Source: a virus. Taken from it: a stretch of 38,959 nucleotides of DNA. The notes under the pieces are model-generated. The model was not told the origin of the DNA. It saw nothing but the letters and a program-made list of their open reading frames with translations, and did no database searches. Where the stretch lies: the IMG/VR virus record IMGVR_UViG_3300045988_088615, positions 1 to 38,959 of that record; one strand, written 5' to 3'. This document shows positions 1 to 38,959 of this stretch, piece after piece. The translations under genes were made by a program, and so were the position numbers. Each line of letters begins with the position of its first letter. Within the stretch, counting starts at the first letter, position 1.

Positions 1-55
1 CAGGGCTTGAATGAGTTCCCGTCGCGGTAGGTGCTGGACCTACGTCAGGGCCGGA
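1..55. repeat. Terminal exact repeat, copy 1 (identical to 38905..38959)
   Basis: Direct comparison of the first and last 55 nt gives 55/55 identity. The next base differs (a at 56, whereas the window ends after 38959). Confidence 0.97.
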
Positions 56-2086
56 AACTTCATTCAAGTCCATTTTTATTAGCTTATGCGTCCGATAGTT
101 GTTGACATTTGGTTCAACTTCCACATCAAACGAGGCAATATATTGTTTGCCATTGATTTCAACGGGGGTTTCAAAATAATCGTAACGAACAGTCTTCTTG
201 GTCTTTGCCCCGTGGGGAACATATTCACCGCTGCCAACATACTCCCCATTTTGCACGATTTCCGTCAAGTTTCCCAATACGGACAGCTTTTCGGCTGTCA
301 AATTTGGGTCACTGATAACCTTTCCGGGCACGTTGTTATTGATGTCTACCGCGTAGGGCTGTCCGCCGAAAGAGGTTCCCTCTACAACAACGCCCTTTGC
401 GGGCTTGAAGATGCTCTTGTAGACGTTCTTCAGCGTACTCTTAAAGCTCTGTCCCGGAAGGGAAAATTCCAGCCCCCGCGCCCCGGCAATACTGTTCTGC
501 GCTCGGGTCAAGGCTTCGCTGCTCACCTGCACCGGTGCTGTGTTTTGCCGCTGGGTCTGTGTAGGCACTTCGCCCTTGTAAGGCTTCTTGATGGTAGTCG
601 CCTGACCCACCCGAATATTCTCCGCCGTCTCCACACCGGGGACGGCGTTTTGCGTGCCCTCTGCGCTCACCTGCTCCACGGGGGCATAACTACCCTCCCG
701 AACGTCTGCTTGCGCTCCTGCGGCGTTTGCGGGGGTGGGGGTATCAATACCCTCCCGCACCTCCGGGCGTACCTCCTGCGTGGGCTGTGCGTCCGCCTGA
801 CTGCTTCCACGCTGTCGGATGACGTCAGCGCCCGCGCCGATGCCGCCCATGGCCGCGCCCACCGCCGCGTCATACAGCGCCTCGCTCAGATCAAACCGGG
901 CAGAGGGGTCATAGGTGGCCCGCTGCAAGATGGGCTGGAAAACGTCCTCGATAAATTCCTCGCCGCCCTCGGAGATCATGGAGAGGGCCAGCCTCCCGGC
1001 GGGACGCTTGGCAAGGTCGCTCATGACCTGAGCGGCTGTACTCTCTCCAAATTTTGCGATCAATTTGCCAGCCGCCTTATCGGCAAGACCCGCGCCGAAC
1101 GCCTTCTTGAAGGGGCCTGCCACGTTGGCGATCTTCTCCGTGGCAAGGCTCAGAGCACCGCTGCCCAGTCCGTAAGCAAGCTGCTGGTCATAGCTGGCCC
1201 CGGCCTGTCTGGACTGTTGGGCGCTGCTTCCGGCAGACCGGGCCGTCATCAGAGCGAGACCGGCACCGGGGATCACGGCGCTGGCTGCCACGTCCCCCGC
1301 CATCTGTACACCCTGAACGCCCAGATCCACGGCGAACCGCCCCACCGGCCCCAGCCCTTCCTTGGCCTGCGCCACGTCCTCAGCGGAGCTTTGGGACAGA
1401 CGGTCGGCCTTCTGATACGCCTTGTCCGCCACTGCCTTGTCGGACTGCTCCACCGCCTTGGTGTAGCCCTCATGGGCCGCGATCCGCCGCTTGGCGCTGG
1501 CAAGGTAGCCCTGCACCTGCTTTACGTCCTTCGCGCTCATGGCCCGTCCGTTGGCCCACTTCACATCCCGGAGCATCTTTTCATACCGCTTCACCGCGTC
1601 ATGGTCGCTTTGCAGGGAATCCCCGGCGTTCTGGTTGGCGATCCGGGTATTCAGCTTCCCGGCCCCCTCTGCCAGCACACCGCCCAGATTTGTATAGGCG
1701 GAGCCGACGGACTTCGCTGCGCCGGAGAGAACCTTCCCCACACGCCCGTTATCAAGGGATGGGATGAGTGTCCCGCTTTGCTTCGTGTCCGCAAGCAAGC
1801 GGCTGTTGGTCCCTGTTTGCCTCCCTACATTGTCCATGGGCTGCGGGTAGCGGGTAGTGCTTTGGGTAAGGGTGGCGCTCTGTGCGCCGGTCTGCTGTGT
1901 GGTCTTTGCGGCGGCCTTTGCCCCGATTTTCGAAGTGTCGCCAATGACCTTGAAGCCTCCAAGCGTCCGGCTGCTCCCATTGGAAGAAGGCGTGGTGCTT
2001 GTCTGCACCGCGCTTCCTTTTTTGCTGCCTGCTCCGATTTTGGAGGTATCGCCAATTACCTTAAATCCGCTTAGTGTTTTTGCCAT
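1..2086 (-). CDS. Giant virion-associated protein, N-terminal 695 codons. The ORF runs off the window start and continues in frame at 38904 downward.
   Basis: ATG at 2086-2084 lies 7 nt after AGAGGTG. I translated this minus frame to nt 1 and met no stop (triplets checked one by one for nt 1-480). It is absent from the ORF track because it has no in-window stop. The long + ORF 86..2074 is its antisense shadow. Confidence 0.85.
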   Translation of the reverse strand, partial: MAKTLSGFKVIGDTSKIGAGSKKGSAVQTSTTPSSNGSSRTLGGFKVIGDTSKIGAKAAAKTTQQTGAQSATLTQSTTRYPQPMDNVGRQTGTNSRLLADTKQSGTLIPSLDNGRVGKVLSGAAKSVGSAYTNLGGVLAEGAGKLNTRIANQNAGDSLQSDHDAVKRYEKMLRDVKWANGRAMSAKDVKQVQGYLASAKRRIAAHEGYTKAVEQSDKAVADKAYQKADRLSQSSAEDVAQAKEGLGPVGRFAVDLGVQGVQMAGDVAASAVIPGAGLALMTARSAGSSAQQSRQAGASYDQQLAYGLGSGALSLATEKIANVAGPFKKAFGAGLADKAAGKLIAKFGESTAAQVMSDLAKRPAGRLALSMISEGGEEFIEDVFQPILQRATYDPSARFDLSEALYDAAVGAAMGGIGAGADVIRQRGSSQADAQPTQEVRPEVREGIDTPTPANAAGAQADVREGSYAPVEQVSAEGTQNAVPGVETAENIRVGQATTIKKPYKGEVPTQTQRQNTAPVQVSSEALTRAQNSIAGARGLEFSLPGQSFKSTLKNVYKSIFKPAKGVVVEGTSFGGQPYAVDINNNVPGKVISDPNLTAEKLSVLGNLTEIVQNGEYVGSGEYVPHGAKTKKTVRYDYFETPVEINGKQYIASFDVEVEPNVNNYRTHKLIKMDLNEVSGPDVGPAPTATGTHSSP
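1919..2068 (-). repeat. Two copies of the peptide motif GFKVIGDTSKIGA (nt 2030..2068 and 1919..1957) at the N-terminus of the giant protein
   Basis: My translation gives MAKTLSGFKVIGDTSKIGAGSKKGS...RTLGGFKVIGDTSKIGAKAAAK. Confidence 0.8.
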
Positions 2087-2099
2087 ACTGGTGCACCTC

Positions 2100-4103
2100 T
2101 CAGTAAGAAATCCCGTACTGTGCCAGCAGGTTCTGGACCTCCTGCTTCTGGCTGGCGGAGAGCTTTCCATAGTTCTTGGTAAGCCAGTTGTATGCCCGGT
2201 CCACATTGCCGTTACTCAGATCCGTGTTCAGGCTGGTGGCCGACGCTATGAAAGCGCCCTGCGTCATGCTGCCGGTGCTGCTTCCGCTGCTCCCCTGATA
2301 CTTCGCCCACGCTTGATCAGCCGTCAGGCCGCCTGCGGCCTTCTTGGAGTTCTTGCCCCACTTGCCGTCCTGAGACACGCCGTAGTATTTCTGGAGCTGC
2401 TTCACCTGCTGATTGGTCAGGGAGCCGTTGGAGTAGCTTCCCTTCTTTTTGCCCGTGCTGCCGCCGCTGGAGGACCCGCCGGAGGTCAGCTTGCCGGTGC
2501 CGTACAGAGAATCGTAGGCCCCCTGCCCGTAATAGTAATCGAAGGCGGAGATCACGTCATCCGTCACGATGCCGTTTTTCAGCGCGGACTGTACCTGACT
2601 GGCCGTCAGATTGGGCTTTACCACGGCCGCTGCGCCGGAGCTGCCGGAGCCGGAGCCGCCCGTCTGTGCGCCGTACTTGGCATAGAGATTCTGCTGGCGG
2701 ACGTATTCCTCGTACAGGGCGTTTGCCAGCTCCGCGTCTCCCGTGGCCTCTGCCTTGGCAATGGCGTTTCGGTACTCCGTGTCAAGCTGGCTCCGCTGGA
2801 GGTCGATGGCCGCCGTCTTTTCCGCCTGCTCCCGGTCGATCTGGGAGAGGTTCTGCTGAAGCACAACATCCTGCGCCAGCGCCGCCTGTCCGGTGGTGCC
2901 GGTATTCAGGCCGTTGGCCACCGCCATCTCCTGAAATCTGCCCCGGCTCAGGGCGTTCTGGTTGGCCGCACTGTTCCGGGCAATATCGTACACCGGCGCG
3001 ATCTGCGCACGGCTGGCGTCCAGTGTGGCGGTGTTCTGCTCGTAGGCGGATTTCAGCGCCGCCAGCTCTGCCGCCACCTTTTTGGCGTACAGCTCCTTCA
3101 AGTAGTCGCCGCCGTCCCCAATGTCAAAGCTCATGCCGGTCTGCGATGTGGAGAGATTACCGGACGGCGTGCCGCCCGCGTTGATGTCCGTGACCCGCTG
3201 CTGCTGGCTGTATGCCGGGGTCCCGTAGCCGGGTGTACCGGCCTGTGCGCCGCCATTCGCCGCCATGAAATCGCCGAAGGACTGCACTTTGCCGTTGGCC
3301 TGTGCGGAGGGGGAGGTGTCCGTTCCCATGAGATAGCGGTAATAGGCCAGCTCCGCGCTTTCCGGGCTGTTGTCAAGCCCCAGCCGCCGCCGCAGATCGT
3401 TCGCGGCAGACAGCGCGCCGCTGTCTGTCACATAGCCGTTCTTGTCGATGGTGTAGCCATATCCGGCACGGATGGCGTTTGCCGCCTGGTTCGCCTGATC
3501 GCCGGTGATCTCGCCCCGCTGTAGCCGGTTGCGGATGTCCTGGATCTTGGAGCGGTCCAGTGCGGACATCATTTCGTTGTCCGTCCACGCACCGCTCTTT
3601 CCATAGCTGCCGTTCCCGGCGTTGATGTCCTGATGGGGGGTGTAGTCCGCCGCGCCCTTCACCGCCTTGTAGGCATAGCCGTTATCGTCATAGAACACGG
3701 TATAGCCGTTGGACACCTGATACCGGTTCGCCAGATCTTCGCGGCGGCTCATGTCCGCGCCGACCCGGTACGATACGCCGTTTTGCTTGTAGTTCTTTAC
3801 CTCGGAATTGCTGGTGGGCGTCCCGTAGATGCCGCCGCCATTGTCCTTGCGGTCGTAGGTATACCCTCCAAAGGTCCCCTGAGAGCTGCCGCCGGAACTT
3901 CCGCTGTTCCCCCGGTTGCTGGACCCGCCGTAGGTCTGAGAATACGTCTTGTCGGAGCCGATCATGTTCGGCTCTCTGCCGCCGTACTTATCGTCGATCT
4001 TGTTCTGCCGCTCCTGAGTCAGCCGGTCCCGCTCGGAGGCCGACAGGTCCGTCCGCTGAAGTTCCTTGGAGTAGTCCTTGTTTTTATCGTAGTACCCTGC
4101 CAT
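2100..4103 (-). CDS. 667-aa low-complexity (Gly/Ser/Asn/Tyr-rich) protein with a central coiled-coil-like segment. Probably a virion or ejection protein; function unknown.
   Basis: Complete ORF, tightly packed between the endolysin and the giant ORF. The C-terminal segment VKQLQKYYGVSQDGKWGKNSKKAAGGLTADQAW resembles a peptidoglycan-binding repeat. Confidence 0.8.
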   Translation of the reverse strand: MAGYYDKNKDYSKELQRTDLSASERDRLTQERQNKIDDKYGGREPNMIGSDKTYSQTYGGSSNRGNSGSSGGSSQGTFGGYTYDRKDNGGGIYGTPTSNSEVKNYKQNGVSYRVGADMSRREDLANRYQVSNGYTVFYDDNGYAYKAVKGAADYTPHQDINAGNGSYGKSGAWTDNEMMSALDRSKIQDIRNRLQRGEITGDQANQAANAIRAGYGYTIDKNGYVTDSGALSAANDLRRRLGLDNSPESAELAYYRYLMGTDTSPSAQANGKVQSFGDFMAANGGAQAGTPGYGTPAYSQQQRVTDINAGGTPSGNLSTSQTGMSFDIGDGGDYLKELYAKKVAAELAALKSAYEQNTATLDASRAQIAPVYDIARNSAANQNALSRGRFQEMAVANGLNTGTTGQAALAQDVVLQQNLSQIDREQAEKTAAIDLQRSQLDTEYRNAIAKAEATGDAELANALYEEYVRQQNLYAKYGAQTGGSGSGSSGAAAVVKPNLTASQVQSALKNGIVTDDVISAFDYYYGQGAYDSLYGTGKLTSGGSSSGGSTGKKKGSYSNGSLTNQQVKQLQKYYGVSQDGKWGKNSKKAAGGLTADQAWAKYQGSSGSSTGSMTQGAFIASATSLNTDLSNGNVDRAYNWLTKNYGKLSASQKQEVQNLLAQYGISY

Positions 4104-4115
4104 ACATGGCCCTCC

Positions 4116-5141
4116 TTATCCGTTCCAGTCTGCCCGGGCTTCCCTTGTATCAATGTGTGTGAAGCCCTTCTGACTGTATACGCCCACGCCGCCCCAGTCC
4201 GGCATCAGCTCTCTTGCGTAGGCCGCCACCGTCTCCGGCGTCTGGCCCTTCACGGTGATATCCGCCGCCGTGCCGTAGCAGTGCTGGCTGTGGGCCACGC
4301 CGCCGACCTTGGTGTTGTACTGTGGCGTCCGATACCCACTGTTGATGGTCACAGCCGCGCCGAAGTGACTGCGGATGCTTTGCAAAACCATCACCAGCCG
4401 GGGGGCCACCAGCACAGCGTCGCTGCCGTCCCCGCAGGCAAATTCTTTCACTTTAAAATGGGTGGACAGCTTTTTGCTGCCGTCCTTCGCCTTGGAATAG
4501 GCGTTGATCTCTACCATAGGTTTCTCTCCTTCCGGCTCACACGCATCCCCGCTTTTCTTTTTCCATACAAGAAAGAACGGGATCACCCGTCCATCCCCGG
4601 TAAAGCCCTTGCCCTCGCTGTCCATAAAGCAGGTGCTCCCGCCGCCGTCCATCATAATGGCATTGTCCCAGCCGGACGCTGCCAGCAGGTCACGGAGCTG
4701 TTCCGGTGTCCGCCGGTCACGGCTCACGTAGTAGGCGAACCGGCCATTCTTGGTGCCGATGGCCGTCCGGGGTGCGCGGTACTTCATATCCGCTCCGCAG
4801 GTGACGGGGTATATTTTCTTCCCATCGATAATAAGGTGAACGCACTCCATGTAATTCCGGTCCTTGTTGGGCACGGTTTTCACGCCGAAGTCTGCCGGGG
4901 TGTCCCAGCTGATGGCCCATGCCCGGTAATTGGGGGCCTTGTAAACCTTACCGTCTGCCTTTAAATGACAGGCGGGTTGCTGGTTCCGCAGGAAGATGGA
5001 GCCATTGCAGATAGCGTCCCCGCCCGCCTCCGCCAGCATCTTCTTCAGGTTGGCCGTGGTGGAGCGGAGACGCCGCCGATTGAAATAGATTTTCAAAAAT
5101 TGGAGGTCGGAGAGCGGGACTGTGCCCGCTCTCGTCGTCAT
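4116..5141 (-). CDS. Endolysin with two domains: N-terminal NAGPA / phosphodiester-glycosidase-like, C-terminal peptidase M15A-like
   Basis: N-terminal motifs: ICNGSIF, PRTAIGTKNGRFAYYVS, IMMDGGGST. C-terminal motifs: NSGYRTPQYNTKVGGVAHSQHCYGTAADI and THIDTR. Overlaps the holin gene by 4 nt. Confidence 0.85.
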   Translation of the reverse strand: MTTRAGTVPLSDLQFLKIYFNRRRLRSTTANLKKMLAEAGGDAICNGSIFLRNQQPACHLKADGKVYKAPNYRAWAISWDTPADFGVKTVPNKDRNYMECVHLIIDGKKIYPVTCGADMKYRAPRTAIGTKNGRFAYYVSRDRRTPEQLRDLLAASGWDNAIMMDGGGSTCFMDSEGKGFTGDGRVIPFFLVWKKKSGDACEPEGEKPMVEINAYSKAKDGSKKLSTHFKVKEFACGDGSDAVLVAPRLVMVLQSIRSHFGAAVTINSGYRTPQYNTKVGGVAHSQHCYGTAADITVKGQTPETVAAYARELMPDWGGVGVYSQKGFTHIDTREARADWNG

Positions 5142-5587
5142 GTCCCGGCCTCCTGCTTGCCCTCGTCGCTGGCCTGCCGGATGGCGTCCAGCATATTCTT
5201 TACAAAGGCCGGGTAGGGAACGCCCATAATGGCCGTGTTTTCTAAAATACTCAATCCCTCATTGGCGATGAAGAACATACAAACCGCGTCTCTCACAAAG
5301 TCGCTGGATGTAGCTTGGTCTAACAGCGCCCCCATCCAGACAAGCGCCAGTTCTACGCACTTCTTCGCGAGACCCTTGAAGCCTGCATCGGAACTCAGCG
5401 CCCCGGTGCTGCTCTTCCCGGACTTGTGCCAGATCGCCGCCACCAGCCAGCCCGTGGCGTAATCCAGCACCATAAAGCAGATCAGCACTTTCAGCGCCAT
5501 ATCCAAGCCGCCCAAAGCCTGCGCGATGACGGAGCCGGTTGTTGCCAGCGCCGCCAGAATCAGATTTTTAATATGTACTGCGTTCAT
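5138..5587 (-). CDS. Holin, phage_holin_4_1 / TcdE-like family
   Basis: Contains hydrophobic segments that look like transmembrane helices. Motifs LDYATGW, SSDAGFKGLAKK and ANEGLSILEN. Lies immediately upstream of the endolysin. Confidence 0.88.
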   Translation of the reverse strand: MNAVHIKNLILAALATTGSVIAQALGGLDMALKVLICFMVLDYATGWLVAAIWHKSGKSSTGALSSDAGFKGLAKKCVELALVWMGALLDQATSSDFVRDAVCMFFIANEGLSILENTAIMGVPYPAFVKNMLDAIRQASDEGKQEAGT

Positions 5588-5613
5588 AGCTTTTGCCCTC
5601 CCTGCACAGTGCT

Positions 5614-5940
5614 TCAGTGGTTCACCCGCACGGCCTTTACCGGGTTTCCGTTGGCGTTGTAGGTCACCTCATAGCGACCCTCGGCAACGGTCACGGTCAT
5701 GGTCTGGCCCGCCAGCTCCGGCTTGTACCGCATGATGTCACGGAGATGCTTCACGTCCTCCGGCTCGGTCTCTGCGGGGATGAAGCCCTCAGCCATTTCT
5801 TTCTCAGACCAACCGGCGATACCACCGTTGGGGTTTAAATGGAAGTTGGCACCGGCCTCCTTCAGCTTGGTGTTGATAACCTCGATGCTCTCGCCGTTCT
5901 TCTTGCCCTCGTTGATGATCTCGGCAAACTTCTTCTCCAT
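5614..5940 (-). CDS. Hypothetical 108-aa protein
   Basis: Complete ORF in the late operon with SD-like GGAGAAAC upstream. No recognisable motif. Confidence 0.7.
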   Translation of the reverse strand: MEKKFAEIINEGKKNGESIEVINTKLKEAGANFHLNPNGGIAGWSEKEMAEGFIPAETEPEDVKHLRDIMRYKPELAGQTMTVTVAEGRYEVTYNANGNPVKAVRVNH

Positions 5941-6042
5941 AGTGTTTCTCCTTTCAATTTTTACGGCTTACTCAGCCGGTTTCAACTGTTCGGTTGATTA
6001 TTCAACTGCTTTCAACCGGTTTCATTTGTATCTGTGGGACCT

Positions 6043-6069
6043 GCCGGAGGATTGACCCTCCGGCTTTTT
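6043..6069 (+). other. GC-rich stem-loop (gccggagg-attgac-cctccggc) followed by T5 on the plus strand
   Basis: Read directly. Located between two minus-strand genes (6073 stop, 5940 start). On the minus strand it has an A-tract before the stem and no U-tract after it. Confidence 0.5.
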
Positions 6070-6072
6070 CCG

Positions 6073-6792
6073 TTACTTTACGCCCTTTAAAAGCATAGTA
6101 GTTTCGTCAAATAGTGCATTGCTGGGTACAATCAAAGCCGGTCTAATCCCCGACGTGGACATAACACTTGTTGTGCTAAAAACTCCATTGACCGGTATAG
6201 TAAACACCGCATCCGCCCCGTTGGACGATGTATAAGGGGTGCGGGTAAACCATGCAACCTTAGACCCATCCAAGTATGGGTATTTATAAGAATCTCCCGA
6301 TGAACCGCTAAAGATTTCAATAGTCGCTCCTTCATCTGGACTGTAACCGGAAGCAGAACCAATTTCGCGCAATGACAATAAAAATGCCTTAGTGTTCAAA
6401 CCATTTGCGCCAGTTTTGGCAGAGGTGCTTTTATTCCCGGGGCAATATGGAACTTTGACCTGCTTAATCGCAGATTGTTCCACGCTGCCAAGACTATTGA
6501 AGAAATCGCCGTTCAACCATGTATTGATAGCGCTATTGGCATACGTGTTCACGGTGGTTGTATTCCACTGTCTTCTGCTATGACAATCCTTCCTCAGCAG
6601 CCACGTGCCGTCACAGCTTGCATCATACAAGCTGCTGTTTTCAGGGATGCCCTGATTGACTACCAGATATTCAACCGCCGTGCCGCCCTCCATCAACTTC
6701 ACGGTTGAACCAACCGCAAGGCTGGAAGCCAACACCCCCGTCACCGGTGCCGTATGCACTTCGCCCTTCCGCAAAAATAAACAGTGTCCCAT
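6073..6792 (-). CDS. DUF6273-like protein; putative receptor-binding or tail-tip protein (paralog 2)
   Basis: Pattern WLLRKD ... YANSAINTWLNGDFFNSL ... KAFLLSLREIG ... WFTRTPY ... GIRPALIV, typical of that Firmicutes domain. Tandem with 6805..7509. Confidence 0.7.
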   Translation of the reverse strand: MGHCLFLRKGEVHTAPVTGVLASSLAVGSTVKLMEGGTAVEYLVVNQGIPENSSLYDASCDGTWLLRKDCHSRRQWNTTTVNTYANSAINTWLNGDFFNSLGSVEQSAIKQVKVPYCPGNKSTSAKTGANGLNTKAFLLSLREIGSASGYSPDEGATIEIFSGSSGDSYKYPYLDGSKVAWFTRTPYTSSNGADAVFTIPVNGVFSTTSVMSTSGIRPALIVPSNALFDETTMLLKGVK

Positions 6793-6804: not shown

Positions 6805-7509
6805 TTAGAAGCAGAAGCCGAAGGCCACGCCATCCGCAATGCTCGCGACGTAGTAGTCGGCGCTGCCGCCGCTGCCGACAATGCAGAAATACGCGGAGTC
6901 GCTGCCCTTCGGAGAGCGCCCCCACCAGTAGTACGCGCTGCCGTTGAGCTTCTTCACCTTGCTGTTGCCCGCCTTGTAGTAGTCGTACTGCGTACCCTCG
7001 CCGCTCTTGGAATAGCTGACGCTGCCGAAAATCTCGATCTCGCTCAGCAGAAACAGCTTGTCCGCCGTGGTGTTGATGGTGGCGCTATAGTTGCCCGCCG
7101 AGGTCAGCTTGTTCACCTCCCGGATGCCGCTCTGCACCTCCGTCGGCATCTTGGCGAGAATGGCAGGCAGGTGCGTCGTTCGCATGGCGCAGTTCGTCCA
7201 GCCGCCGACATTGGTGTTGGTGCTGTTCATGTTCTTGGTCTCGCCGTAGCAGTCATGCAGCTGGAAGGTCAGCGGAGCCTTACCGGAACCGTCCGCATAA
7301 TCGTCATGGTTTTTGCCGATAATGTCGATAGCATAATCCACACCATTGATGGTCATGGTTTTCTGGTTTTCAACCGCCCAAGTATCCGGCACTTGGTTTT
7401 TATGGCAGGCATCAATGATCTGCGCCCACGTATTATCCGAAAAATTCGCTTTGTACGAAACCGGCACCGTCATACCCTTGCTCGCGCCGCTTAAAATCAC
7501 ACGTCCCAT
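6805..7509 (-). CDS. DUF6273-like protein; putative receptor-binding or tail-tip protein (paralog 1)
   Basis: Pattern DKLFLLSEIEIFG ... YYWWGRSP. Its start shares nt 7509 with the stop codon of the fibre gene. Confidence 0.7.
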   Translation of the reverse strand: MGRVILSGASKGMTVPVSYKANFSDNTWAQIIDACHKNQVPDTWAVENQKTMTINGVDYAIDIIGKNHDDYADGSGKAPLTFQLHDCYGETKNMNSTNTNVGGWTNCAMRTTHLPAILAKMPTEVQSGIREVNKLTSAGNYSATINTTADKLFLLSEIEIFGSVSYSKSGEGTQYDYYKAGNSKVKKLNGSAYYWWGRSPKGSDSAYFCIVGSGGSADYYVASIADGVAFGFCF

Positions 7510-9350
7510 CAGCTCACCTCCACGACAATGGGAATGTCCACCGTATTCGCCTCACCGAAGATGGTGAACTTGATGCCACCCGCTACCGTCTCGGCGTAGC
7601 CGTTGGTGATGCAGTTGAGGTACTGGTTCTCCGCCTCCACAAAGGCCGCGTAATCGTCAGAAGTCCCCGCCCCCGTATAAGCGTGGTCCACCAGTGCCGT
7701 GTTCTGGGCCGTCACCCCGGCGATGGCAACGCTCTGCGTCTTAACGCCGGTGTTTTCATCCTCCGCCCACGTAGTCCCGATAGTGGCGGTGTAGGTCTTG
7801 ACGGAGGAAATTTCCGGCAGCTGGCTTGCGGGCACCTTGCCGTCCGCTCCCAGAGACGCCGCGCCAATGGCCGCAGGGGTAATGGGGTCCTCCCCATCCT
7901 TCCCGTGCTGGCTGGCGTGTTTCCCCGCCGCCTTGCCGTTCCACGTGGTTTTCTGTTCGGCGGTCACGTGGATGCCGCTGTTGCCAATGTGCCCCGGCAC
8001 GTCTTTCAGCGCCGTGTTGAACGCCGTCTCCGTTCCGGAATACCCGGCTTCCACGGCGGTCTGATATGCGCTCTTGCCGTCCGTGCCCTTTACACCGGCG
8101 GGACCTTGCGGGCCTTCCGGGCCAACGTCACCCTGGGGACCCTGTACGCCCTGAATACCCTGCGGCCCTTGTGGGCCGGTAGCGCCCTTGGCACCGGGCT
8201 CACCCTGCGGACCGGTGGGGCCTTGGATGCCCTGCTCGCCCTGCGGGCCGGTAGCTCCGGTATCGCCTTTATCGCCTTTGGGGCCTTGGATGCCCTGTGC
8301 GCCTGCGGGTCCCTGCGGACCTTCCGGGCCTTGCAGCTTGCCGACGCTTACCCAGTCGCTTTCATTCTCAGACCAGATGTAGCACTCCTTGTCCGCCTCC
8401 ACCATGTACATTTTTTCATTGCCGGTGGGGATGGCCTTCCGCAGCGCCGCCAAAGTGGGGTAAATGTCCTCGATATAAAGGCTCTTGCCGTCTTTGCCGG
8501 GAGCGCCTGTTGCGCCGGTAGCGCCGGTAGGGCCTTGGGGTCCTGCGGGTCCGATTGCGCCCTGTGCGCCATCCGCGCCCTTGGGTCCGATCTCACCCTG
8601 CGGCCCCTGAATACCCTGTAAGCCACGGGGACCTTGCGGGCCGGTAGGACCATCCGGGCCGGTCTCGCCCTGATCGCCCTTGGGACCCTGCGCACCGGCC
8701 ACGCCCTGGATACCCTGCGGGCCTCTTGCGCCCTGTGCGCCCTGCTCGCCCTGTACGCCCTGCGGGCCTTGGGGGCCGCGCACGTTTACGCTCTGGGGCG
8801 GGGACGTTACATTTTGCAGGGAAAAGGACATAACGCCGTTAATGTCCACACTGGGGACGATGGCGGGTCCCACCGGCCCCTGTGCGCCGGTGGCTCCGGT
8901 ATCGCCGGTATCGCCCTTGTCGCCTTTTTCACCCTTGTCACCCTTTACGCCGGTGACCACGGTCACGCCGTTCTGGTCCGTTACCGTGCCATTGGTGAAC
9001 TGCATCCGGCTCCGCTGGGGGAGAGCCTGTCCGTCCGGGCCGATAATTAGGTGGCCGGAAGAACCGGTTGCCTGCCAGACCTTGCCGTCCGTGCTGACCT
9101 CCAGCACCTTGTCCGCGTTCAGCCGGATATACTTGAATCCGGCCTCGTTCTGCGGCAGCAGCACCGCTGTTTCCACACCCAGATTTTCCAGTGTCGGGAT
9201 CAGGGTCTCGTTCATGTAGGTCTGGAGGGCCTTGCCGCCCTCGTCGAACTTGTTTTTCAGCTCGACGGAGGTCATCCCGCCAACGTCATTGGGTTCATCG
9301 TCCAATGCCGCAATGATCGCCATGTTTTTGTTGAATTTCTCAATCGCCAC
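7509..9350 (-). CDS. Tail fibre with a BppU-like N-terminus and three collagen-like G-X-Y blocks
   Basis: N-terminus [42 protein letters not shown]. Long GxY runs. C-terminal [16 protein letters not shown] and [20 protein letters not shown] motifs are common in phage fibres. Confidence 0.88.
8076..8951 (-). repeat. Collagen-like triplet repeats in three blocks (about 8865..8951, 8487..8777, 8076..8330)
   Basis: G-X-Y periodicity over fibre residues 134-162, 192-288 and 341-425. It generates the many spurious ORFs listed on both strands here. Confidence 0.9.
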
Positions 9351-9353
9351 AGG

Positions 9354-11021
9354 TTACACCTCCGTTTTCGGCACTTCGCCGGTCTCGTTGATCTTCCGCT
9401 GCAACTGGCCGTATCCGGCCCCGCCCCGAATGGGGGCGGCTTCTTCCTGCGTGATCGGCTGTTCGCCCTCTGCTCCCGGCTGACCACCCATCATGGCAAT
9501 CTCCTGCTGCTGGAGGGCTTGGATCAGCGCCTCCTTGTCGGTGATCTGTCCGGCGGGCAGCCGTTTCAGATACTCCACCGTGGAGATCTTGCCCTGCATC
9601 AGCAGGTTATCAAGAGTCTGCATAGCTGCGATCTCACTCCAATAGGAAGCCGCGCCCGCATCTAGTCCGATGGTGAATGGGATCTCTTTCAGGATGGAGA
9701 AGTCAAAGGGAACCACCAATTTGCTGTTGTCATAGGGGTTGGAGATCTCCACATACCGTTCTCCGTAGTATTCGCCCATGAACTCCATGTAGATGCGGCC
9801 CATATCCTCAATGCTCTGCAAGAGGTTCTGCTTCGTCAGCTCCATAGGCGTTGCCGCCGCCCGCTGCAAGGCGATGATGGCGGAGGTGTTGTCCGGGCGT
9901 GTATCGCCCAGAGCCACGTCCGATGCGCCGAGGAACTTCTGGGTGTAGCTGATAGCAATGTCAATAAACTGGCTGATCTGTGGGGAGATGCTGGCGGGGT
10001 CAATGATCTTCGCCACGCCCTCCACACTGCCGTTCACCGGGATAGCCCCGCCGATCTTGTTTGTCCACTTGGCTACCTTGGTGGAATCATATACCACCTT
10101 CGGATAGGCCAGTGTCATGAGGGAGATCATGGACATGGCGAACAGCTTGTTTACAAAGATCTGGTTTGGCAGGAGGCCGGTGATCATGGCCTGTCCGTGA
10201 TAGCAGTCCTGCACATAGTCCCAGTTCATCCACGTCAGAGGATAGAGCTTGATGCCAAGGTCCAGATCGCCCCGGATCTCCGCCTGCCGGGTGCACTCGT
10301 AGGCATGGACGGTGCCGGTCTCGTCATCCTTCCATAGCCGGAGCAGCACCGTCACTTTGTTCCCGCTGCCGCTCATGGAATCCATGTAGTTGTTTCCGCA
10401 GTCCTTGTTGTCCGGCTGGATCTCGTCCGGGTCCTTGCCGTACCGCTTGGCCCGCTTCCGGGCCTCGCTCAGCAGCATCCGCCGTTCCAGAAGGATGTAG
10501 GGCTGGCTCTGCACGTCCCGGTTGTTGGGATTGCCGAACAAAACCTGCGTATTCATCAGGACCTCCGTGCGGATGGCCCCCTTGCTGGCCTGTCCGGTCT
10601 CCGCCGTATCGTCCCAATAGGTATACATACAGCCGTCACCGTCCACGGCGGCGTTTCTGGTAAACTCCCGGATGCGCCCGCCGATGCTGTTATGCTCAAA
10701 AATGGACGCGAACTGATCGTTGAGAATGTCAGCCACCAGCTCCAAGGTCTGCGTGTTCCGCTCCCCGCTGGAGGACATGGCCCGCGCCCACAGTTTCAGA
10801 TTATCCGTGGAGATATTCGCCACGGAGAACAGTACCACCCGCTTCAAGAAGTTAAATACGGGGGTTGGGAGTCCGTTGCTCTGCACACCCTCCCACTGCT
10901 TCCCGATGAAGAAATTTTCGTTGGTCTCCACGCAGTCATAGAGATCAATGCCGCTGTTGAAGCTGATCCCCGCGCTGTATTCCTTGCCGACCCGCTCAGG
11001 GGTCATCGTCTGTTTGCTCAT
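9354..11021 (-). CDS. Portal protein
   Basis: 555 aa in the head module. The N-terminal NENFFIGKQWEGV...GLPTPVFNFLKRV pattern and the acidic C-terminal tail are portal-like. Confidence 0.7.
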   Translation of the reverse strand: MSKQTMTPERVGKEYSAGISFNSGIDLYDCVETNENFFIGKQWEGVQSNGLPTPVFNFLKRVVLFSVANISTDNLKLWARAMSSSGERNTQTLELVADILNDQFASIFEHNSIGGRIREFTRNAAVDGDGCMYTYWDDTAETGQASKGAIRTEVLMNTQVLFGNPNNRDVQSQPYILLERRMLLSEARKRAKRYGKDPDEIQPDNKDCGNNYMDSMSGSGNKVTVLLRLWKDDETGTVHAYECTRQAEIRGDLDLGIKLYPLTWMNWDYVQDCYHGQAMITGLLPNQIFVNKLFAMSMISLMTLAYPKVVYDSTKVAKWTNKIGGAIPVNGSVEGVAKIIDPASISPQISQFIDIAISYTQKFLGASDVALGDTRPDNTSAIIALQRAAATPMELTKQNLLQSIEDMGRIYMEFMGEYYGERYVEISNPYDNSKLVVPFDFSILKEIPFTIGLDAGAASYWSEIAAMQTLDNLLMQGKISTVEYLKRLPAGQITDKEALIQALQQQEIAMMGGQPGAEGEQPITQEEAAPIRGGAGYGQLQRKINETGEVPKTEV

Positions 11022-12895: not shown

Positions 12896-14281
12896 TTATC
12901 CGTAGGATAGATAATCGGCGGTCATTTCCCCGCCCGTCATCACGTCATTGTAATCCTCGCCCTCGTCGAAATCGTCCACGATCTTTTCCACGGTTTTCTG
13001 TGCGCCCAGAACGCGGGTCACGCAGAAATACCGGGCAGCGTCGCAGATATGGGTGATCTCGTGGGGCTCCGTGGCGCAGTCCGATGGGTTTTTCTCGTCA
13101 TGCTGGATGGAGGGCAGGTTGCGGATCAGGCCCACGCAGTTTTCCGTTACCAGCAGTCCGGGCCGGTCCGTGTCGCTCTTCATAGGCTTCAGCAGCTCCT
13201 TAACGGCCATCCAGCCCTGAACGCGGTTGTTACTGGCCTTCAGCAGCCCCAGCCCGTTCTGCGCGAAGATCTCCGCCATGCTCCGGCCGCTGTCCTTCTG
13301 CCGGTTCCACATATCCGGCGGGGCAATGGTGAACTCAATGTGCTCCTCCGGCGGGGTCAGGGCATTTGCCAGCTTTGCCGCCTCGGATACGATCAAGCCG
13401 CTTTGCTGTACCTCACGGTACACATAGGCCCGCCCCTCAAAGTCCACCGCCACCCAAAGGCAGGCGAACATATCAAGGCCGTAGTCGAACGCCCGGTATT
13501 TCTTCCACTCCCGGGGCACCCGCACAAAAGGCGAGATCACATGGGTCTCCCGCCGGAACTCCGGGAAGAACGTGCCTGCCATGGCGTTCCAATCGCCGTA
13601 GCGCCACGCCCGCCGCACATCCTCCGGCAGTAGGTCCAGCATTTGCTTGTACTCCGGGGATGCCTCCAAAAGCTGGGGGTTATCGTCCACCGTGGCGGGG
13701 ATGAAGGTGTAATCCTTGGCCTTTTCCCCCTCCCGATACTCTCGGTCCACGAACAGCCGCTTTACCCACAGATGGCCGATGCCGCCGGGGTTGCAGGTCA
13801 GGTACATCCGCCGGGGAACCTTCGTGGAGCCGCGCAGACACGCGCCCAGCGTCCGAAACTGTCCCTCTGTAAACTGGGTGGCCTCCTCCATGAAGATCCA
13901 GTCAAATTCAAGTCCCTGATATTCCTGATCGTCTCCGGCTCCATAGTGCCCGAATTTGATGATGCTGCCGTTGCAGAAGAACATCATGCGCATACTGCCG
14001 TTGTAGCTGCCCACCTCCGGCGGGATCAGCTTCTGCATAGGCAGAATGATGTTCTGCTCCAATTCCGGGTACTCCTGGCGCACGATCAGGATCTTGATGC
14101 CGGGGTAGGTGAGCGCGCCGCCTGCCGCCTTCCGCAGCAGAACGTGTGTCTTGCCGCCGCCTCTGGCACCGCCGTAAGCCGTGTACCGGCTCCGGGACTG
14201 GCAGAACTGCTTCTGTTTGGGGTTCAGCGTCCCCAAATCCACTTGTACCGTTCCGCCTGCTGTCTGTTTATATCGAGGCAT
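12896..14281 (-). CDS. terL: Terminase large subunit
   Basis: Walker A YGGARGGGKTH, Walker B-like FDWIFMEEA, and a C-terminal nuclease-like half. Confidence 0.9.
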   Translation of the reverse strand: MPRYKQTAGGTVQVDLGTLNPKQKQFCQSRSRYTAYGGARGGGKTHVLLRKAAGGALTYPGIKILIVRQEYPELEQNIILPMQKLIPPEVGSYNGSMRMMFFCNGSIIKFGHYGAGDDQEYQGLEFDWIFMEEATQFTEGQFRTLGACLRGSTKVPRRMYLTCNPGGIGHLWVKRLFVDREYREGEKAKDYTFIPATVDDNPQLLEASPEYKQMLDLLPEDVRRAWRYGDWNAMAGTFFPEFRRETHVISPFVRVPREWKKYRAFDYGLDMFACLWVAVDFEGRAYVYREVQQSGLIVSEAAKLANALTPPEEHIEFTIAPPDMWNRQKDSGRSMAEIFAQNGLGLLKASNNRVQGWMAVKELLKPMKSDTDRPGLLVTENCVGLIRNLPSIQHDEKNPSDCATEPHEITHICDAARYFCVTRVLGAQKTVEKIVDDFDEGEDYNDVMTGGEMTADYLSYG

Positions 14282-17953: not shown

Positions 17954-18031
17954 TGGTGGTTTCGGCAGGAATCGAACCTGCGACATATCGGCTCACGAAG
18001 TCCGCTGCTCTTCCGACTGAGCTACGAAACC
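17954..18031 (-). tRNA. tRNA-like gene with encoded CCA and an irregular anticodon arm; best reading is Thr(CGU)
   Basis: Minus strand reads GGTTTCG-TA-GCTC-AGTCGGAA-GAGC-A-GCGGACTTCGTGAGCCGAT-ATGTC-GCAGG-TTCGATT-CCTGC-CGAAACC-A-CCA. Acceptor, D and T arms are canonical. The anticodon arm is 19 nt instead of 17. Confidence 0.6.
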
Positions 18032-35353: not shown

Positions 35354-38300
35354 TTACTTATAGGGGTTCTTGGCGTTGGTGGTGCAGATAATGTCCCACA
35401 GATCCGCCCGGTGCTCCTGACCGGCAAGGGCGGCGCTGGCCTCCGCCTTGCTGACCCTGCCGTTTCCGTCCGCGTCGGCGCTGTCCTTCATGGAGAAATA
35501 CTCCTTGGGGGAAAGTCCGGCATCATGCGCCTGCTTTACCTTCTCATAGGCTTTCCCGCTCATTTTCTCGCTGCCGTACTTTTGGTACAGGGCCAGAAAT
35601 TCCCCGGTGGACACGCCGATGTCCCGCTTGGACGTTTTTGCATTCTCAATCCACTTGTCGCTGGGCTCATACTTGGGGTCCACCTGCTGACGGGCCGTCT
35701 CACGCGCATATTTATACACGTTCTGGATGTAGTCAGACTTTTCGCTGTCGCTCATGGACTTGTATGCGGGCAGCTTCACTGCCGCCTCCACCAGCTCCTT
35801 TCGAGTCTGGCCCATGGTCTTGGCGTACCGGGTGTATTCCTCGCCGGTCAGGGTCCGGGTCTCACCCTTCACCGTATAGGACTTCTCCGCCGCCGCAGGA
35901 TAAACGGCGCTGTCTCCGGTGGCCTTTGCCAGCCGCCGGATCTCCTGCGTGGCGGGGCTGTTGTCCTGCGCTTTCAGGAAGCCGGGGGAGAAGAAAGACT
36001 GGAACACCCGCTCCGGTGCGGAGCCGTTGGAGACCTCGTTGCCCCACATATCCACCATGGGCTGAAGCTGATTCCGTGCGCCGGGGACCTTCTTCGCCGC
36101 CCCCTGCAAGAAATAGTTCACGTCAGAGGCTACCTGCCCCGTGCCCTTTTCCACATAGCTTTTGCGCACCGTATCATCAAATACGGAGGCAACCTTGCTT
36201 CCGATGGTGGGGATATACTGTCCGGCGTAGCTGCTGGCCGCCCGGTCAAGCAGATAGCCAACCTTGTTGTCGGCGTAGCTCCAATAGGAGATCAGGTCAT
36301 TCAGGGAGGACAGCATGGAGGTTTCCAGCACAACGTCCTGCATCCCCAGCAGAGAATCCACCAGCGCGTCGAAGGTGCTGCCGCCCTTTTCATGGGATTT
36401 TTCGGTGGCAGCGCCCGCAAACAGGGGCATTGCCGCAGGAAGCGCCCAGTCCAGCGTGTAGGACTTGTCCCCGATCTGAATAGCATAATCCTGCCCCCCC
36501 ATGGACTTCTCAAAGGCTTCCTCCTTGTCATCGTCACCGGCCCGGACGTGGAGCAGCCCCTCCGCCGCCAGATAAGCGCCCAGCGCGAAAATGCCGGTTC
36601 CGGTGAGGCCGGATGCAAGGGAATCCACGGCGTCCGCCGCCGTGCAGTTGCCTCTCCGCACATCCCACAGAGCTTCCTTCACACTCTTTGCGATGCCAAC
36701 AGGGCTGTAATCAAGACCCGTGGTCAGGATGTTGGCCGGGGTCTTGCGGAAGGGTAGAAGCGCATCGGTTACAAAACTTATACCGCGCTCAACAATATTG
36801 TCGCTCGCATCATACCGGCCTCTCTTGGACAGCGCCTCGGAAAGAGCTGTGGTGTTGCGGTAGGTAGCCTTCTGCGCTTCCTCAATGGCGTAGGCCCGTG
36901 CCGCCTCCACGTCTGCGGTTCTGGTGCCTGCGTGGGCCTCTGCCGCCGTCACGCCCTTGGCTTGCAGCGCTTGGGCGAAACTGTCCACATAAGCCGCACG
37001 GTTGAAGATCACGTCCTCATAGTCAAGGGCGCGGCTGTTCAGGTCTCCAATGCCCTGCACGGCACGGGAGAGAACGTCCTCCCCCTTGAACATTTTTCGC
37101 TTGCTCTGGATCTCACGCTCAATGCCTGCCGCCGTGGCGTCGGAATACTTTCCGCTGCCCATCGCCGCGTTCTGGTCCGTCTCATACTGGCCCTTGGCAA
37201 AGGCTTTCAGATCCTTGTCAACATTCACGGCCTTTGTCCGCTGGCTCTGATCCTTGATGACCGCCCGCTCGATTGCGGTTCCGATGCCGTCCTTGATCTT
37301 CCGCGCACCCATCTGAATGGCGTTGCCCATGATGTTGCGGATGTGGGTGGTGGGGTTAGTCAGCATGGAGGTGTACCGCCAGAAATTGGCCTTCTCCCGG
37401 AACGTGCTGGGGATCTGGTCTGCAATGGACGTTGTGATGGCGTCCCACGCCGCCGCCCGCTCCGCGTCCGTCTCTGCCATCAGGTAGTTGGTGGCCAGCT
37501 CGTCAGAGAGGGTGAAGCCCGTCACCTTGTCAATGTAGTCCACCCGTGCGCCTTCCACGTCTCCGCTGTCGGCGGTGTTCTGCCGGGGCGTCCGGTTCTG
37601 CCGTGCCGCCCGGTCATTCATCCGGTCTACCAGCCGCCGCAGCGTCAGCAGACGGCCCTCCGGCGTCAACCGGTTCATCAGGTTCATGGCCTGCACCATC
37701 TGTGCGCTGTCGTGAGCCGCGTCCGCAATGGCCGTTGCCAGCTCAAAGGCGGCCTTGTGGTCTCCTTCGGAAATGGCAAGGTTGTAGGCGCTGATAGCCT
37801 CGGCGGTGTCCGCCTTGGTGATCCGCTGTCCCAGCTCCGCCTTGGCAATGAAGCTGTTCGCTACCTCACGCCAGCCGTCCCGCGCAATCTTGGCCTGCGC
37901 CTGCTGCACGGCGCTCCGGTCCGTCACCACGTCATAGTCGAACGCGCCGCCTGCAATGGCGTTTTCATACACGGTTGCCATTTCCGGGGAGGTCAAGGGG
38001 CTATTGAGAATGGTGGAGACCGTTTTCTCCACATTCCGCCCGGTGTCAGGGTTCACAACGGGTACTTCGGAGGGGGCGCGGCGCTGGTCATTTTGCACCC
38101 GCTCCGCACTGTTAGGATTTACCGGGTGGAACTCCTCGCTTTTGGCCTGCATGGCGTCAAAGGGCGTGTTCACCGTCCCGGCCTTGGCGTCACCCGGCGT
38201 GTCGAAAGCATCCACATCGTCCAAACCGCGGCCCCGCGCCTGCTTGCCCGCGCCCAAAATGCTCTGCTTGGCGGTGAGATACCCGCTGTTGGGTCCAACC

Positions 38301-38959
38301 TGTTCGCCGGTCATGGTGGTGTAGCCGTGAGAGAGCATATCGTCCAGAATCAGCTCCACCCGCTTGGCCGCCGCCACGTTCTCTTGCCCCTGATCGGTGA
38401 TGATCCGCTGAGCTGCGTCGATAATGGCGTCACGGGAAAGCCCGGTTTCGTCCATGGCCTGCCGCAGATGGGGCGAGGTCTGTGCCGCCTGTTGGACGGC
38501 GTTGCCCTCCATGGTTCGCTCATAACGGCGGCTCATGGGCTGCTGGAGGGAGAGGTCTGCGTCCGCGATCAGGGCGTTGGCCGCTTCCTGATAATAGTGA
38601 TGCAGCTCCGGGTGGTCGAACTGGAAGGCGTTTACGTCTCTGCTGCCCACCGTCTCCATGCGGCGCCGGTCGATGTGCTGCTCCGGGTCGATCTGGAACA
38701 CCTTTCCAGCGGCGTCCATGCCCACAGTGCCCTCCTCGTTGGCACGGAAAATGGCGTCCTGCTGGGCCTCCGTCATGGTATTCAGGTCCGCCCGCTTCTT
38801 CCCAAACAGAACCTCGGAGAGAATGTCCCGGCTTCCCCCGTTCTTGACATTTTCCGCCCCCTGTGCTATGCTATCATTAGCATTGAGGGGACGCGTACCC
38901 TCAACAGGGCTTGAATGAGTTCCCGTCGCGGTAGGTGCTGGACCTACGTCAGGGCCGGA
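35354..38959 (-). CDS. Giant virion-associated protein, C-terminal part. The frame is open to the window end and continues from 1..2086 through the 55-bp overlap.
   Basis: The track starts it at Met 38776, but the same frame has no stop up to 38959. Position 38905 (equivalent to position 1) is a first codon position in both pieces. Combined length: 2086+3551 = 5637 nt = 1878 aa plus stop. Confidence 0.85.
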   Translation of the reverse strand, partial: SGPDVGPAPTATGTHSSPVEGTRPLNANDSIAQGAENVKNGGSRDILSEVLFGKKRADLNTMTEAQQDAIFRANEEGTVGMDAAGKVFQIDPEQHIDRRRMETVGSRDVNAFQFDHPELHHYYQEAANALIADADLSLQQPMSRRYERTMEGNAVQQAAQTSPHLRQAMDETGLSRDAIIDAAQRIITDQGQENVAAAKRVELILDDMLSHGYTTMTGEQVGPNSGYLTAKQSILGAGKQARGRGLDDVDAFDTPGDAKAGTVNTPFDAMQAKSEEFHPVNPNSAERVQNDQRRAPSEVPVVNPDTGRNVEKTVSTILNSPLTSPEMATVYENAIAGGAFDYDVVTDRSAVQQAQAKIARDGWREVANSFIAKAELGQRITKADTAEAISAYNLAISEGDHKAAFELATAIADAAHDSAQMVQAMNLMNRLTPEGRLLTLRRLVDRMNDRAARQNRTPRQNTADSGDVEGARVDYIDKVTGFTLSDELATNYLMAETDAERAAAWDAITTSIADQIPSTFREKANFWRYTSMLTNPTTHIRNIMGNAIQMGARKIKDGIGTAIERAVIKDQSQRTKAVNVDKDLKAFAKGQYETDQNAAMGSGKYSDATAAGIEREIQSKRKMFKGEDVLSRAVQGIGDLNSRALDYEDVIFNRAAYVDSFAQALQAKGVTAAEAHAGTRTADVEAARAYAIEEAQKATYRNTTALSEALSKRGRYDASDNIVERGISFVTDALLPFRKTPANILTTGLDYSPVGIAKSVKEALWDVRRGNCTAADAVDSLASGLTGTGIFALGAYLAAEGLLHVRAGDDDKEEAFEKSMGGQDYAIQIGDKSYTLDWALPAAMPLFAGAATEKSHEKGGSTFDALVDSLLGMQDVVLETSMLSSLNDLISYWSYADNKVGYLLDRAASSYAGQYIPTIGSKVASVFDDTVRKSYVEKGTGQVASDVNYFLQGAAKKVPGARNQLQPMVDMWGNEVSNGSAPERVFQSFFSPGFLKAQDNSPATQEIRRLAKATGDSAVYPAAAEKSYTVKGETRTLTGEEYTRYAKTMGQTRKELVEAAVKLPAYKSMSDSEKSDYIQNVYKYARETARQQVDPKYEPSDKWIENAKTSKRDIGVSTGEFLALYQKYGSEKMSGKAYEKVKQAHDAGLSPKEYFSMKDSADADGNGRVSKAEASAALAGQEHRADLWDIICTTNAKNPYK
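38905..38959. repeat. Terminal exact repeat, copy 2 (identical to 1..55)
   Basis: 55/55 identity, read directly. Confidence 0.97.

Follow-up and report, generated by a model that had tools for sequence, protein, structure and literature searches.

The gene studied here lies on a 38,959-nucleotide (nt) virus record of IMG/VR (IMGVR_UViG_3300045988_088615, positions 1 to 38,959), called the window below and analysed over its whole length, and it encodes a protein of 1878 amino acids (aa). Its closest described counterparts come from two lines of work on phages. Iyer et al. (2017; with Burroughs, Anand, de Souza and Aravind) suggested that virions take up and inject those polyvalent proteins whose genes stand among virion genes (PMC5512222), and Hardies et al. 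(2016) described podoviral internal virion proteins that variably host domains destined for the cytoplasm, such as the virion RNA polymerase of N4 gp50, which sits inside a homologue of internal virion protein D, or IVP-D, and the methylase of H66 gp60 (PMC4819975). More recently phi24B gp47, a polyvalent protein of 2811 aa, was found by proteomics to be abundant in virions but was invisible in the reconstruction, and has therefore been proposed to be an ejection protein (bioRxiv 10.64898/2026.04.10.717836). Giant proteins that fuse polyvalent and internal-virion features are thus already described in short-tailed phages (PMC5512222, PMC4819975). The window protein fits this pattern, appearing to join a constant ejection-type scaffold to a swappable cargo held between disordered linkers. 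We put at about 0.6 the probability that it is packaged in the capsid, ejected at infection, and delivers a polymorphic effector.

A single gene across the ends of the window

The first and last 55 nt of the window form an exact direct repeat (1-55 equals 38905-38959), the longest exact terminal repeat found, and 55 nt is the overlap typically left on a circular contig by an assembler working with k = 55. The molecule is therefore a circle of 38,904 bp (57.7% G+C) once one copy is removed; the copy at 38905..38959, which encodes aa 678-695, is assembly overlap. On the minus strand, where the whole gene lies, the frame starting at ATG 2084-2086 reaches nt 1 with no stop, and the frame of the open reading frame (ORF) listed at 35354..38776 is open as far as 38959. 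On the circle both pieces are in phase and form one joined frame of 5637 nt, or 1878 codons with one terminal stop. Its 5' part (1..2086) holds 695 codons and the first base of codon 696, and its 3' part (35354..38904) runs from the rest of that codon to codon 1878, with the stop at 35354-35356. An earlier note on this DNA, made from its letters alone, had read the repeat, both open frames and the single circular gene in this way, and each of these readings stood.

Other assemblies confirm that the join is real and that the gene is single and uninterrupted. A stretch of 1200 nt with the join at its centre recurs at 100% identity, contiguous and internal, in five contigs (L001-L005) from five different samples, and the region is also contiguous, at 85% identity, in two further contigs (L006 and L007). 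That the window instead holds two separate genes, its 55-bp repeat being the terminal repeat of a linear genome or the product of a mis-join, finds its sole support in the window as given ending inside both frames, and can be dismissed for practical purposes against these five samples, more than 100 relatives with one uninterrupted protein of 1812-1878 aa, relatives' contigs that are opened at other positions (one of 67 kb has the gene internal), and an excess of third-position substitutions that spans both gene parts. The contig of 67 kb, L006, is ENA ERZ28637412 scaffold_251 (67,342 bp), about 28 kb longer than the phage; its extra length is either host flank around an integrated prophage or a concatemeric assembly.

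The split is thus an artefact of representation, due to the arbitrary opening of a circular contig. The break falls between aa 695 and 696, and the 55-bp overlap marks the right edge of the variable cassette described below, immediately before (S)SPVEGTRPLNAND. This segment is common to three of the four cassette types, and the MuF_C allele rejoins the shared sequence about 24 residues beyond it. Cassette alleles that co-existed in the sample would create a branch in the assembly graph, which may explain the break point. Linear gene calling of circular contigs misses the largest gene of this phage and yields in its place a 1140-aa fragment and a 662-aa antisense shadow, a loss that is avoided by rotating circular contigs before annotation.

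The start of the gene is preceded by a Shine-Dalgarno-like GAGAGGTG (2094..2101, minus strand) at 7 nt from the ATG, as the earlier note had suggested, and this sequence shares bases with the stop of gene 2100-4103, from which the ATG is 13 nt downstream. A mechanical ORF call on the circle reaches GTG 2206 (1918 aa), and the stretch so added overlaps the upstream gene. Close relatives align from the first residues (96-100% identity over aa 1-50), which favours ATG 2084-2086 as the start. With 14.5% of the genome, the gene is by far the largest, as had been claimed; the next largest product has 667 aa. The plus-strand ORF at 86..2074 (662 aa) proved to be the antisense shadow it had been taken for, because its G+C content per codon position (0.70/0.49/0.63) is in excess at position 1, where real genes of this genome have the excess at position 3, and because substitutions relative to two relatives accumulate in the third codon position when read in the minus frame, which has 43 of them in the N-terminal part (17 and 15 in the other two positions) and 175 in the rest (53 and 30). 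This test uses counts of substitutions per codon position only, a comparison of amino-acid identity in the two frames having been discarded on account of alignment gaps.

A constant scaffold with one exchangeable cassette

The protein consists of a constant scaffold (a helical N-domain, a mid-domain and a C-terminal module of about 850 aa, the C-module) and one exchangeable effector cassette that lies between disordered linkers. We modelled it with AlphaFold2 in two parts, both built with family alignments: the N-terminal 695 residues, with a mean predicted local distance difference test score (pLDDT) of 68.7, and the C-terminal 919, with a mean pLDDT of 84.4, a predicted template modelling score of 0.71 and nearly all residues in helices. 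The N-terminus (aa 1-111, 1754..2086; pLDDT 31-39) is disordered, has a high content of Thr, Ser, Gly and Lys, and holds two GFKVIGDTSKIGA repeats, at aa 7 (2030-2068) and aa 44 (1919-1957). It is followed by the conserved N-domain (aa 113-428, 803..1750), modelled with two very long helices, in which aa 262-280 (1247-1303) form a Gly/Ala-rich helix of moderate hydropathy. The cassette, delimited by a drop in identity to orthologues, spans aa ~430-717 (1..799, continuing at 38840-38904). It begins with a disordered linker (aa 429-499; in the model, aa 428-488 are disordered), continues with an alpha+beta domain (aa 500-680, 47-589; pLDDT ~90) and runs into a second disordered linker (aa 681-724). 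Within the alpha+beta domain, aa 574-660 (107-367) match Pfam LPD3 (PF18798; E 3e-8, 34.3 bits versus a curated cut-off of 27).

Beyond the cassette the family consensus defines a conserved mid-domain, HIDxR...AFQFDHPE...GQEN (aa 725-920, 38231..38818), and the family alignment and the model together define the all-helical C-module (aa 960-1810, 35561..38113). In the window protein the C-module carries, in order, WRYxxMLxNPxTHIRNIxGN (37322-37381), EAQKATYR (36854-36880), LPFRKTPANIL (36725-36757), a hydrophobic helix containing GLTGTG (36551-36640), TLDWxxP (36437-36457) and DxWG (36041-36055); the motifs invariant in the family are WRYxxMLGNPRTHxRNxxGN, EAQKATYRD, LPF(R/K)(K/R)TPANIL, YSP, GLTGTG, TLDWLAP, QxxPT and DAWG. 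No Pfam model matches the C-module, those of the LPD families included. The full protein has no match in PHROGs, both halves and the neighbouring proteins have none in NCBIfam, and neither phmmer nor a profile search found one in the PDB, where the best Foldseek match of the C-module has E = 1. The C-terminal tail (aa 1811-1878, 35357..35560) contains an EF-hand-like calcium-binding loop, DADGNGRVSKAE (aa 1839-1850, 35441-35476), read as a motif from the sequence. Several homologues among the predicted viral structures of BFVD are named 'EF-hand domain-containing protein', and Pfam gives no match to the tail loop.

A search of about 5.8 billion proteins returned 1922 matches, of which the best 120 are single proteins of 1653-1878 aa, 83-98% identical to ours and mostly encoded on contigs of 38-41 kb. 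Across the cassette, identity to orthologues falls to 8-28%, with flanks that are mostly 90-100% identical. Both anchors of the cassette are present in 118 sequences (117 of the best 120 matches and the window protein), in which we distinguished four types, all above their Pfam cut-offs: LPD3-A, to which the window protein belongs (89/118); LPD3-B, a different LPD3 (24/118; P0076 and P0091, for example); the nuclease PBECR3 (P0084, P0104 and P0120, 3/118); and MuF_C in the two remaining proteins (P0106 and P0116, 2/118). In comparison with its closest relative (P0001, 98% identity), the window protein has 19 extra residues in the left linker, and the same insertion occurs in the PBECR3 alleles. 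The three matches left out of the typing (P0089, P0093 and P0110; 1653 aa, otherwise 95-98% identical) are devoid of aa ~717-917, that is, of the mid-domain, which may be dispensable unless these are defective copies. Such exchange at a single site among near-identical phages offers a clean natural experiment on effectors relevant to the gut.

The fold of LPD3 itself gives little guidance. When the N-terminal model was compared with the PDB by Foldseek, the LPD3 region produced only weak matches to NTF2/ketosteroid-isomerase-like structures (E >= 0.06, probability <= 0.54), which are only a hint that LPD3 may be NTF2-like. A barnase- or BECR-like nuclease fold for LPD3 was considered and is unsupported by these matches.

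The architecture shares much with polyvalent proteins (PMC5512222). Like them, this is a very large phage protein encoded beside virion genes, its gene closing the late operon of a temperate phage; its LPD3 domain is one that Iyer et al. defined, and its orthologues and relatives carry PBECR3, PBECR5, MuF_C and ART-PolyVal, with a mosaic turnover of domains between orthologues as in Helicobacter jhp1044. The earlier note had pointed out the two repeats, the Gly/Ala-rich stretches and a compact domain, all of which are present, and had been reminded by that domain of polyvalent-protein modules. This hunch fared well, as the domain is LPD3, is exchanged for PBECR3 or MuF_C, and has counterparts in ART-PolyVal, PBECR5 and GNAT domains of larger family members. 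On the other side, the window protein has a single Pfam-recognisable domain of this type next to a conserved but unnamed N-domain, mid-domain and C-module (its larger relatives have several recognisable ones), no zincin-like processing peptidase, which is frequent in polyvalent proteins though not obligatory, and a mostly constant scaffold whose ~850-aa C-module matches no Pfam model.

A second comparison is with MuF-type polymorphic toxins of temperate phages, in which, as Jamet et al. reportedly found in 2017, a MuF head-morphogenesis domain is combined with a variable C-terminal toxin. Here too a variable, toxin-like module is mounted on a constant phage structural scaffold, and one cassette allele is MuF_C, but the cassette is internal rather than C-terminal and the N-terminal Phage_Mu_F domain is missing. 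With no Phage_Mu_F hit in Pfam, we rejected the possibility that the window protein is itself a MuF toxin.

The C-module and its family

What the scaffold might do is suggested by its C-module, which is homologous to proteins encoded in the gp16 slot of marine T7-like phages. In BFVD, Foldseek found 54 matches to the C-module at E <= 1e-3. The top ones belong to the same family in uncultured gut phages and are named after their cargo (PolyVal ADP-ribosyltransferase, LPD3, MuF-C, nuclease, EF-hand); the next are the 'internal virion protein' of Pelagibacter phage Eyrgjafa (E 2.9e-13, TM 0.42) and those of Synechococcus phages S-CBP3, S-CBP2 and S-RIP1 (E 1e-10). The same Pelagibacter phage proteins were reached by tblastn at E 7e-4, S-TIP28 at E 1e-2 and 'internal virion protein D' of HTVC011P at E 0.6. 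Aligned by hhalign, the C-module and Eyrgjafa gp22 match with 98% probability (E 1.7e-13, 24% identity over 482 columns), and the alignment superposes the motifs NPxTHIxN and PFxxTPxN. In Eyrgjafa, a member of the Autographiviridae, tail tube A and tail tube B come first, then genes for products of 154, 200 and 614 aa, then this 1234-aa protein and after it the tail fibre; gp22 therefore occupies the position of T7 gp16.

The likeness to the marine proteins (Eyrgjafa gp22, Gjalp, HTVC011P, S-CBP3, S-CBP2, S-RIP1 and S-TIP28) includes the two shared motifs and the hydrophobic helix, and in both settings the gene is the largest late gene of a short-tailed phage of ~38-40 kb. The differences are considerable. 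The marine proteins measure 870-1230 aa and have no N-domain, cassette or mid-domain, and the phages that encode them are lytic members of the Autographiviridae that infect Gram-negative hosts and have tail tube genes of the T7 type, whereas the window phage, temperate and with a portal of the P22 type, probably has a Gram-positive host. Position differs as well, the window gene standing after holin, endolysin and the 667-aa gene, with the fibre upstream.

With T7 gp16 and IVP-D (PMC4819975) the window protein shares a large size, an extensively alpha-helical structure as modelled, and the pairing with another large helical protein, and expulsion at infection is the role we propose for it; it has no detectable sequence or fold similarity to T7 gp16 and no lytic transglycosylase domain. 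A virion RNA polymerase of the N4 type was rejected, the defining domain being absent. Eyrgjafa gp22 has no match in the PDB, and therefore provides no chain to T7 gp16; the extended IVP-D family of Hardies et al., which includes T7 gp16, N4 gp50-C and epsilon15 gp17, was joined stepwise with podovirus-only profiles (PMC4819975). A function like that of IVP-D is thus supported by the homology to gp16-slot proteins, which falls short of establishing membership of the T7 gp16 family proper. The earlier idea of an internal-virion protein thereby gains real but indirect support, through the marine proteins and not through T7 gp16 itself. The giants of Stx phages (phi24B gp47 and the 2806-aa orf71 of VT2-Sakai, an 'LPD5 domain-containing protein') are likewise encoded by the last late-operon gene of a temperate short-tailed phage, but they come from a Gram-negative host, combine LPD5, LPD1, LPD38 and MuF-C, and show no detectable similarity to the C-module.

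To delimit the family we ran an exhaustive HMMER search with the C-terminal 1140 residues, clustering at 50% identity, which gave 8,390 clusters at E <= 1e-3 and 3,618 at E <= 1e-30. Among the matches listed, most have the C-module at the C-terminal end of a protein of 1,500-4,000 aa. It is present nearly end to end in 131 of 149 family representatives, the mid-domain in 85/149 and the N-domain in 45/149, and across these representatives two sites are variable: the gap between N-domain and mid-domain, and that between mid-domain and C-module. In a set of 16 of the largest members we found ART-PolyVal (7/16), PBECR5 (3/16) and LPD3 (3/16), and also MuF_C, PBECR3, a methyltransferase, GNAT acetyltransferases and a DprA winged helix, a domain content that makes these members polyvalent proteins as Iyer et al. 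use the term (PMC5512222).

Their hosts form a narrow group. In 185,579 species-representative genomes we found 135 loci with a relative, nearly all in Oscillospiraceae or other Clostridia (Dysosmobacter, Pseudoflavonifractor, Lawsonibacter, Oscillibacter, Agathobaculum, Yeguia and Faecousia among the genera). Several of these loci lie inside large scaffolds of cultured isolates, and are therefore prophages; Pseudoflavonifractor sp. Marseille-P3106, Lawsonibacter celer NSJ-47 and Agathobaculum sp. Marseille-P7918 are candidate cultured lysogens with a family member. The best long match in this collection is 37% identical, and a scan of the genome contigs with the single protein gave no match. 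In the genome collection, identity to the C-module is highest, at 48%, in a match from a 2.6-kb contig (L008, JBAXYW010000574.1) that was assigned to Lentisphaeria and is probably a mis-binned phage fragment; all other matches are in Clostridia. In a prophage of Pseudoflavonifractor sp. Marseille-P3106 (scaffold LT827126.1, around 103.6-126.2 kb) the genes run from virion protein through fibre and endolysin to one of 490 aa and then a giant gene of 1791 aa, followed by oppositely oriented replication genes. The 490-aa protein shares with the 667-aa protein of the window a core of 45% identity (E 4e-33), and this homology and the common position make the giant gene and its upstream partner a conserved pair. 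The 667-aa gene is also directly upstream of the giant gene in all related contigs. Its product has no family match except a sub-threshold PG_binding_1, and by BLASTP no similarity to the gp15-slot protein of Eyrgjafa.

A family of this size, concentrated in abundant Clostridia of the human gut and defined by a module for which Pfam, PHROGs and NCBIfam have no model, together with the clean exchange of cassettes among near-identical phages, makes the finding moderately notable. The link of the C-module to gp16-slot proteins provides a testable function for thousands of giant phage proteins now called 'hypothetical'. Less expected is the host range, almost entirely within Clostridia.

Ejected protein, cargo or tail component

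The window represents a complete genome, that of a temperate, short-tailed phage of the human gut, whose circle was opened inside the largest gene. The late operon, on the minus strand, starts with three small genes with no product named (upstream of 15424) and continues with the major head protein (14372-15424), the large terminase (12896-14281), a virion structural protein of 615 aa (11034-12881), a P22-type portal (9354-11021), a collagen-like tail fibre (7509-9350), two Hoc-like/DUF6273 proteins (6805-7509 and 6073-6792), holin (5138-5587), endolysin (4116-5141) and the 667-aa partner (2100-4103), the giant gene (2086..1 joined to 38904..35354) being the last. A tyrosine integrase (21999-23081) and early genes are also encoded, and the phage is therefore temperate. 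Among the late genes scanned, Pfam and PHROGs revealed no tape measure and no tail tube, sheath or terminator, which makes a short-tailed virion the reasonable reading and agrees with the earlier remark that the genome has no tape measure. When the late region was compared by megablast with 50,697 GenBank phage records, there was no match and hence no close relative; the closest terminase, 54% identical, is on an unannotated contig from human faeces, and, to judge by their sample names, the related contigs come from metagenomes of the human gut. A member of the Clostridia or Oscillospiraceae is the probable host.

In the reading we prefer, a few copies of the protein would be packaged in the capsid with the 667-aa partner and, at infection, expelled through the short tail ahead of the DNA. 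The C-module, with its conserved Gly-rich hydrophobic helix, would help to form or anchor a passage across wall and membrane, in the manner of T7-like gp16-slot proteins, so that the cassette could reach the cytoplasm and act early on functions of the host or of competitors. In this phage the cargo would be LPD3, in sister strains a predicted RNase (PBECR3 or MuF_C), and the turnover of cassettes between near-identical phages would be the mark of an arms race. The link of the C-module to gp16-slot proteins also suggests that short-tailed phages of Gram-positive bacteria make use of ejected proteins.

Several observations weigh against this reading. For this protein and its close relatives a place in the virion is deduced from sequence and predicted structure, and the gene is placed after the lysis genes, where cargo genes also sit. 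Only one effector-type domain is recognisable, and LPD3 has no known activity and nothing but the weak NTF2-like matches; no processing peptidase domain, zincin-like metallopeptidases included, is found in Pfam at E <= 0.1. The usual Kyte-Doolittle threshold for transmembrane segments is ~1.6, and the two hydrophobic segments, at 1.39-1.47, remain below it. No similarity to T7 gp16 is detectable (hhalign probability 0.1, and no PDB match by sequence, profile or fold), nor any of the C-module to VT2-Sakai orf71. The label 'internal virion protein' in marine phages reflects size and synteny, as has been said for P-SSP7 (PMC4819975). Finally, ejectosomes of the T7 type are not described for monoderm hosts, as the hosts here likely are, and the same review assigns ejection-protein genes to podoviruses that infect Gram-negative hosts and not to phi29-like phages, whose hosts are Gram-positive (PMC8954989).

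Some of these points would suit a gene that is never packaged, a moron-like cargo behind the lysis cassette coding for a polymorphic toxin, a superinfection-exclusion factor or a lysogenic-conversion factor. Its place downstream of holin and endolysin, where it borders the early region, is compatible with this, as are the cassette polymorphism, which is typical of toxin systems, and a virion location deduced from genes. We nevertheless regard it as unlikely. No relative that we examined lacks the gene or its partner, and in distant prophages the two keep their position within the late operon; the gene takes up 14.5% of a small genome, is co-oriented with the late gene 13 nt upstream, and carries a constant module of ~850 aa with homology to the gp16-slot proteins that T7-like phages encode. 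Nor is a cognate immunity gene evident, although no systematic search for one was made.

Still less probable is an external tail component, be it a central fibre, a needle, an extension of the nozzle or a ruler resembling a tape measure. In its favour, a long helical protein with hydrophobic stretches rich in Gly and Ala resembles a tape measure, and few other tail genes are recognisable. This has to be contrasted with the lack of any match to tape-measure, tail-tube or tail-terminator families in Pfam and PHROGs, with the P22 type of the portal, with homologues that occupy the gp16 slot in T7-like phages having tail tube genes of their own, and with ADP-ribosyltransferase and RNase domains in family members, which make sense only inside a target cell. 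A tape measure in the strict sense was rejected, as no such family matches this protein or the late genes scanned.

A more far-reaching reading is that the ~850-aa C-module and the upstream partner may eject the DNA in a very large group of uncultured short-tailed phages whose hosts are Gram-positive Clostridia of the gut, and that the module may double as a general delivery chassis with two fixed cargo sites for RNase, ADP-ribosyltransferase, acetyltransferase or LPD domains, exchanged among strains of a single phage species. Ejection proteins of the T7 type would then reach monoderm hosts, for which reviews report none. We advance this tentatively, at somewhat short of even odds.

Some minor features of the genome deserve mention. 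The gene order is unusual in that the major head protein is upstream of the large terminase, and the 615-aa virion structural protein is unusually placed between terminase and portal. Just upstream of the late operon, ARAGORN predicts a tRNA-like gene (17954-18031, minus strand) of undetermined type with a two-base anticodon, 'cg', which could be a degenerate tRNA, the remnant of an attachment site or a false positive. In some relatives (L002, 7450-7971; L004, 1792-2313) the endolysin and the 667-aa gene are separated by an inserted homing-endonuclease gene of the HNH/NUMOD4 type, coding for 173 aa, that is absent from the window. The tail-fibre region (7509-9350, 6805-7509 and 6073-6792) constitutes a second swap site: in close relatives with identical giant-gene junctions (compare L001-L007 at ~2600-6100) the fibres measure 421, 825, 831, 1003 or 220+578 aa, and after the fibre come either two DUF6273/Hoc-like genes, as in the window, or a 96-aa gene and an XkdX-like gene.

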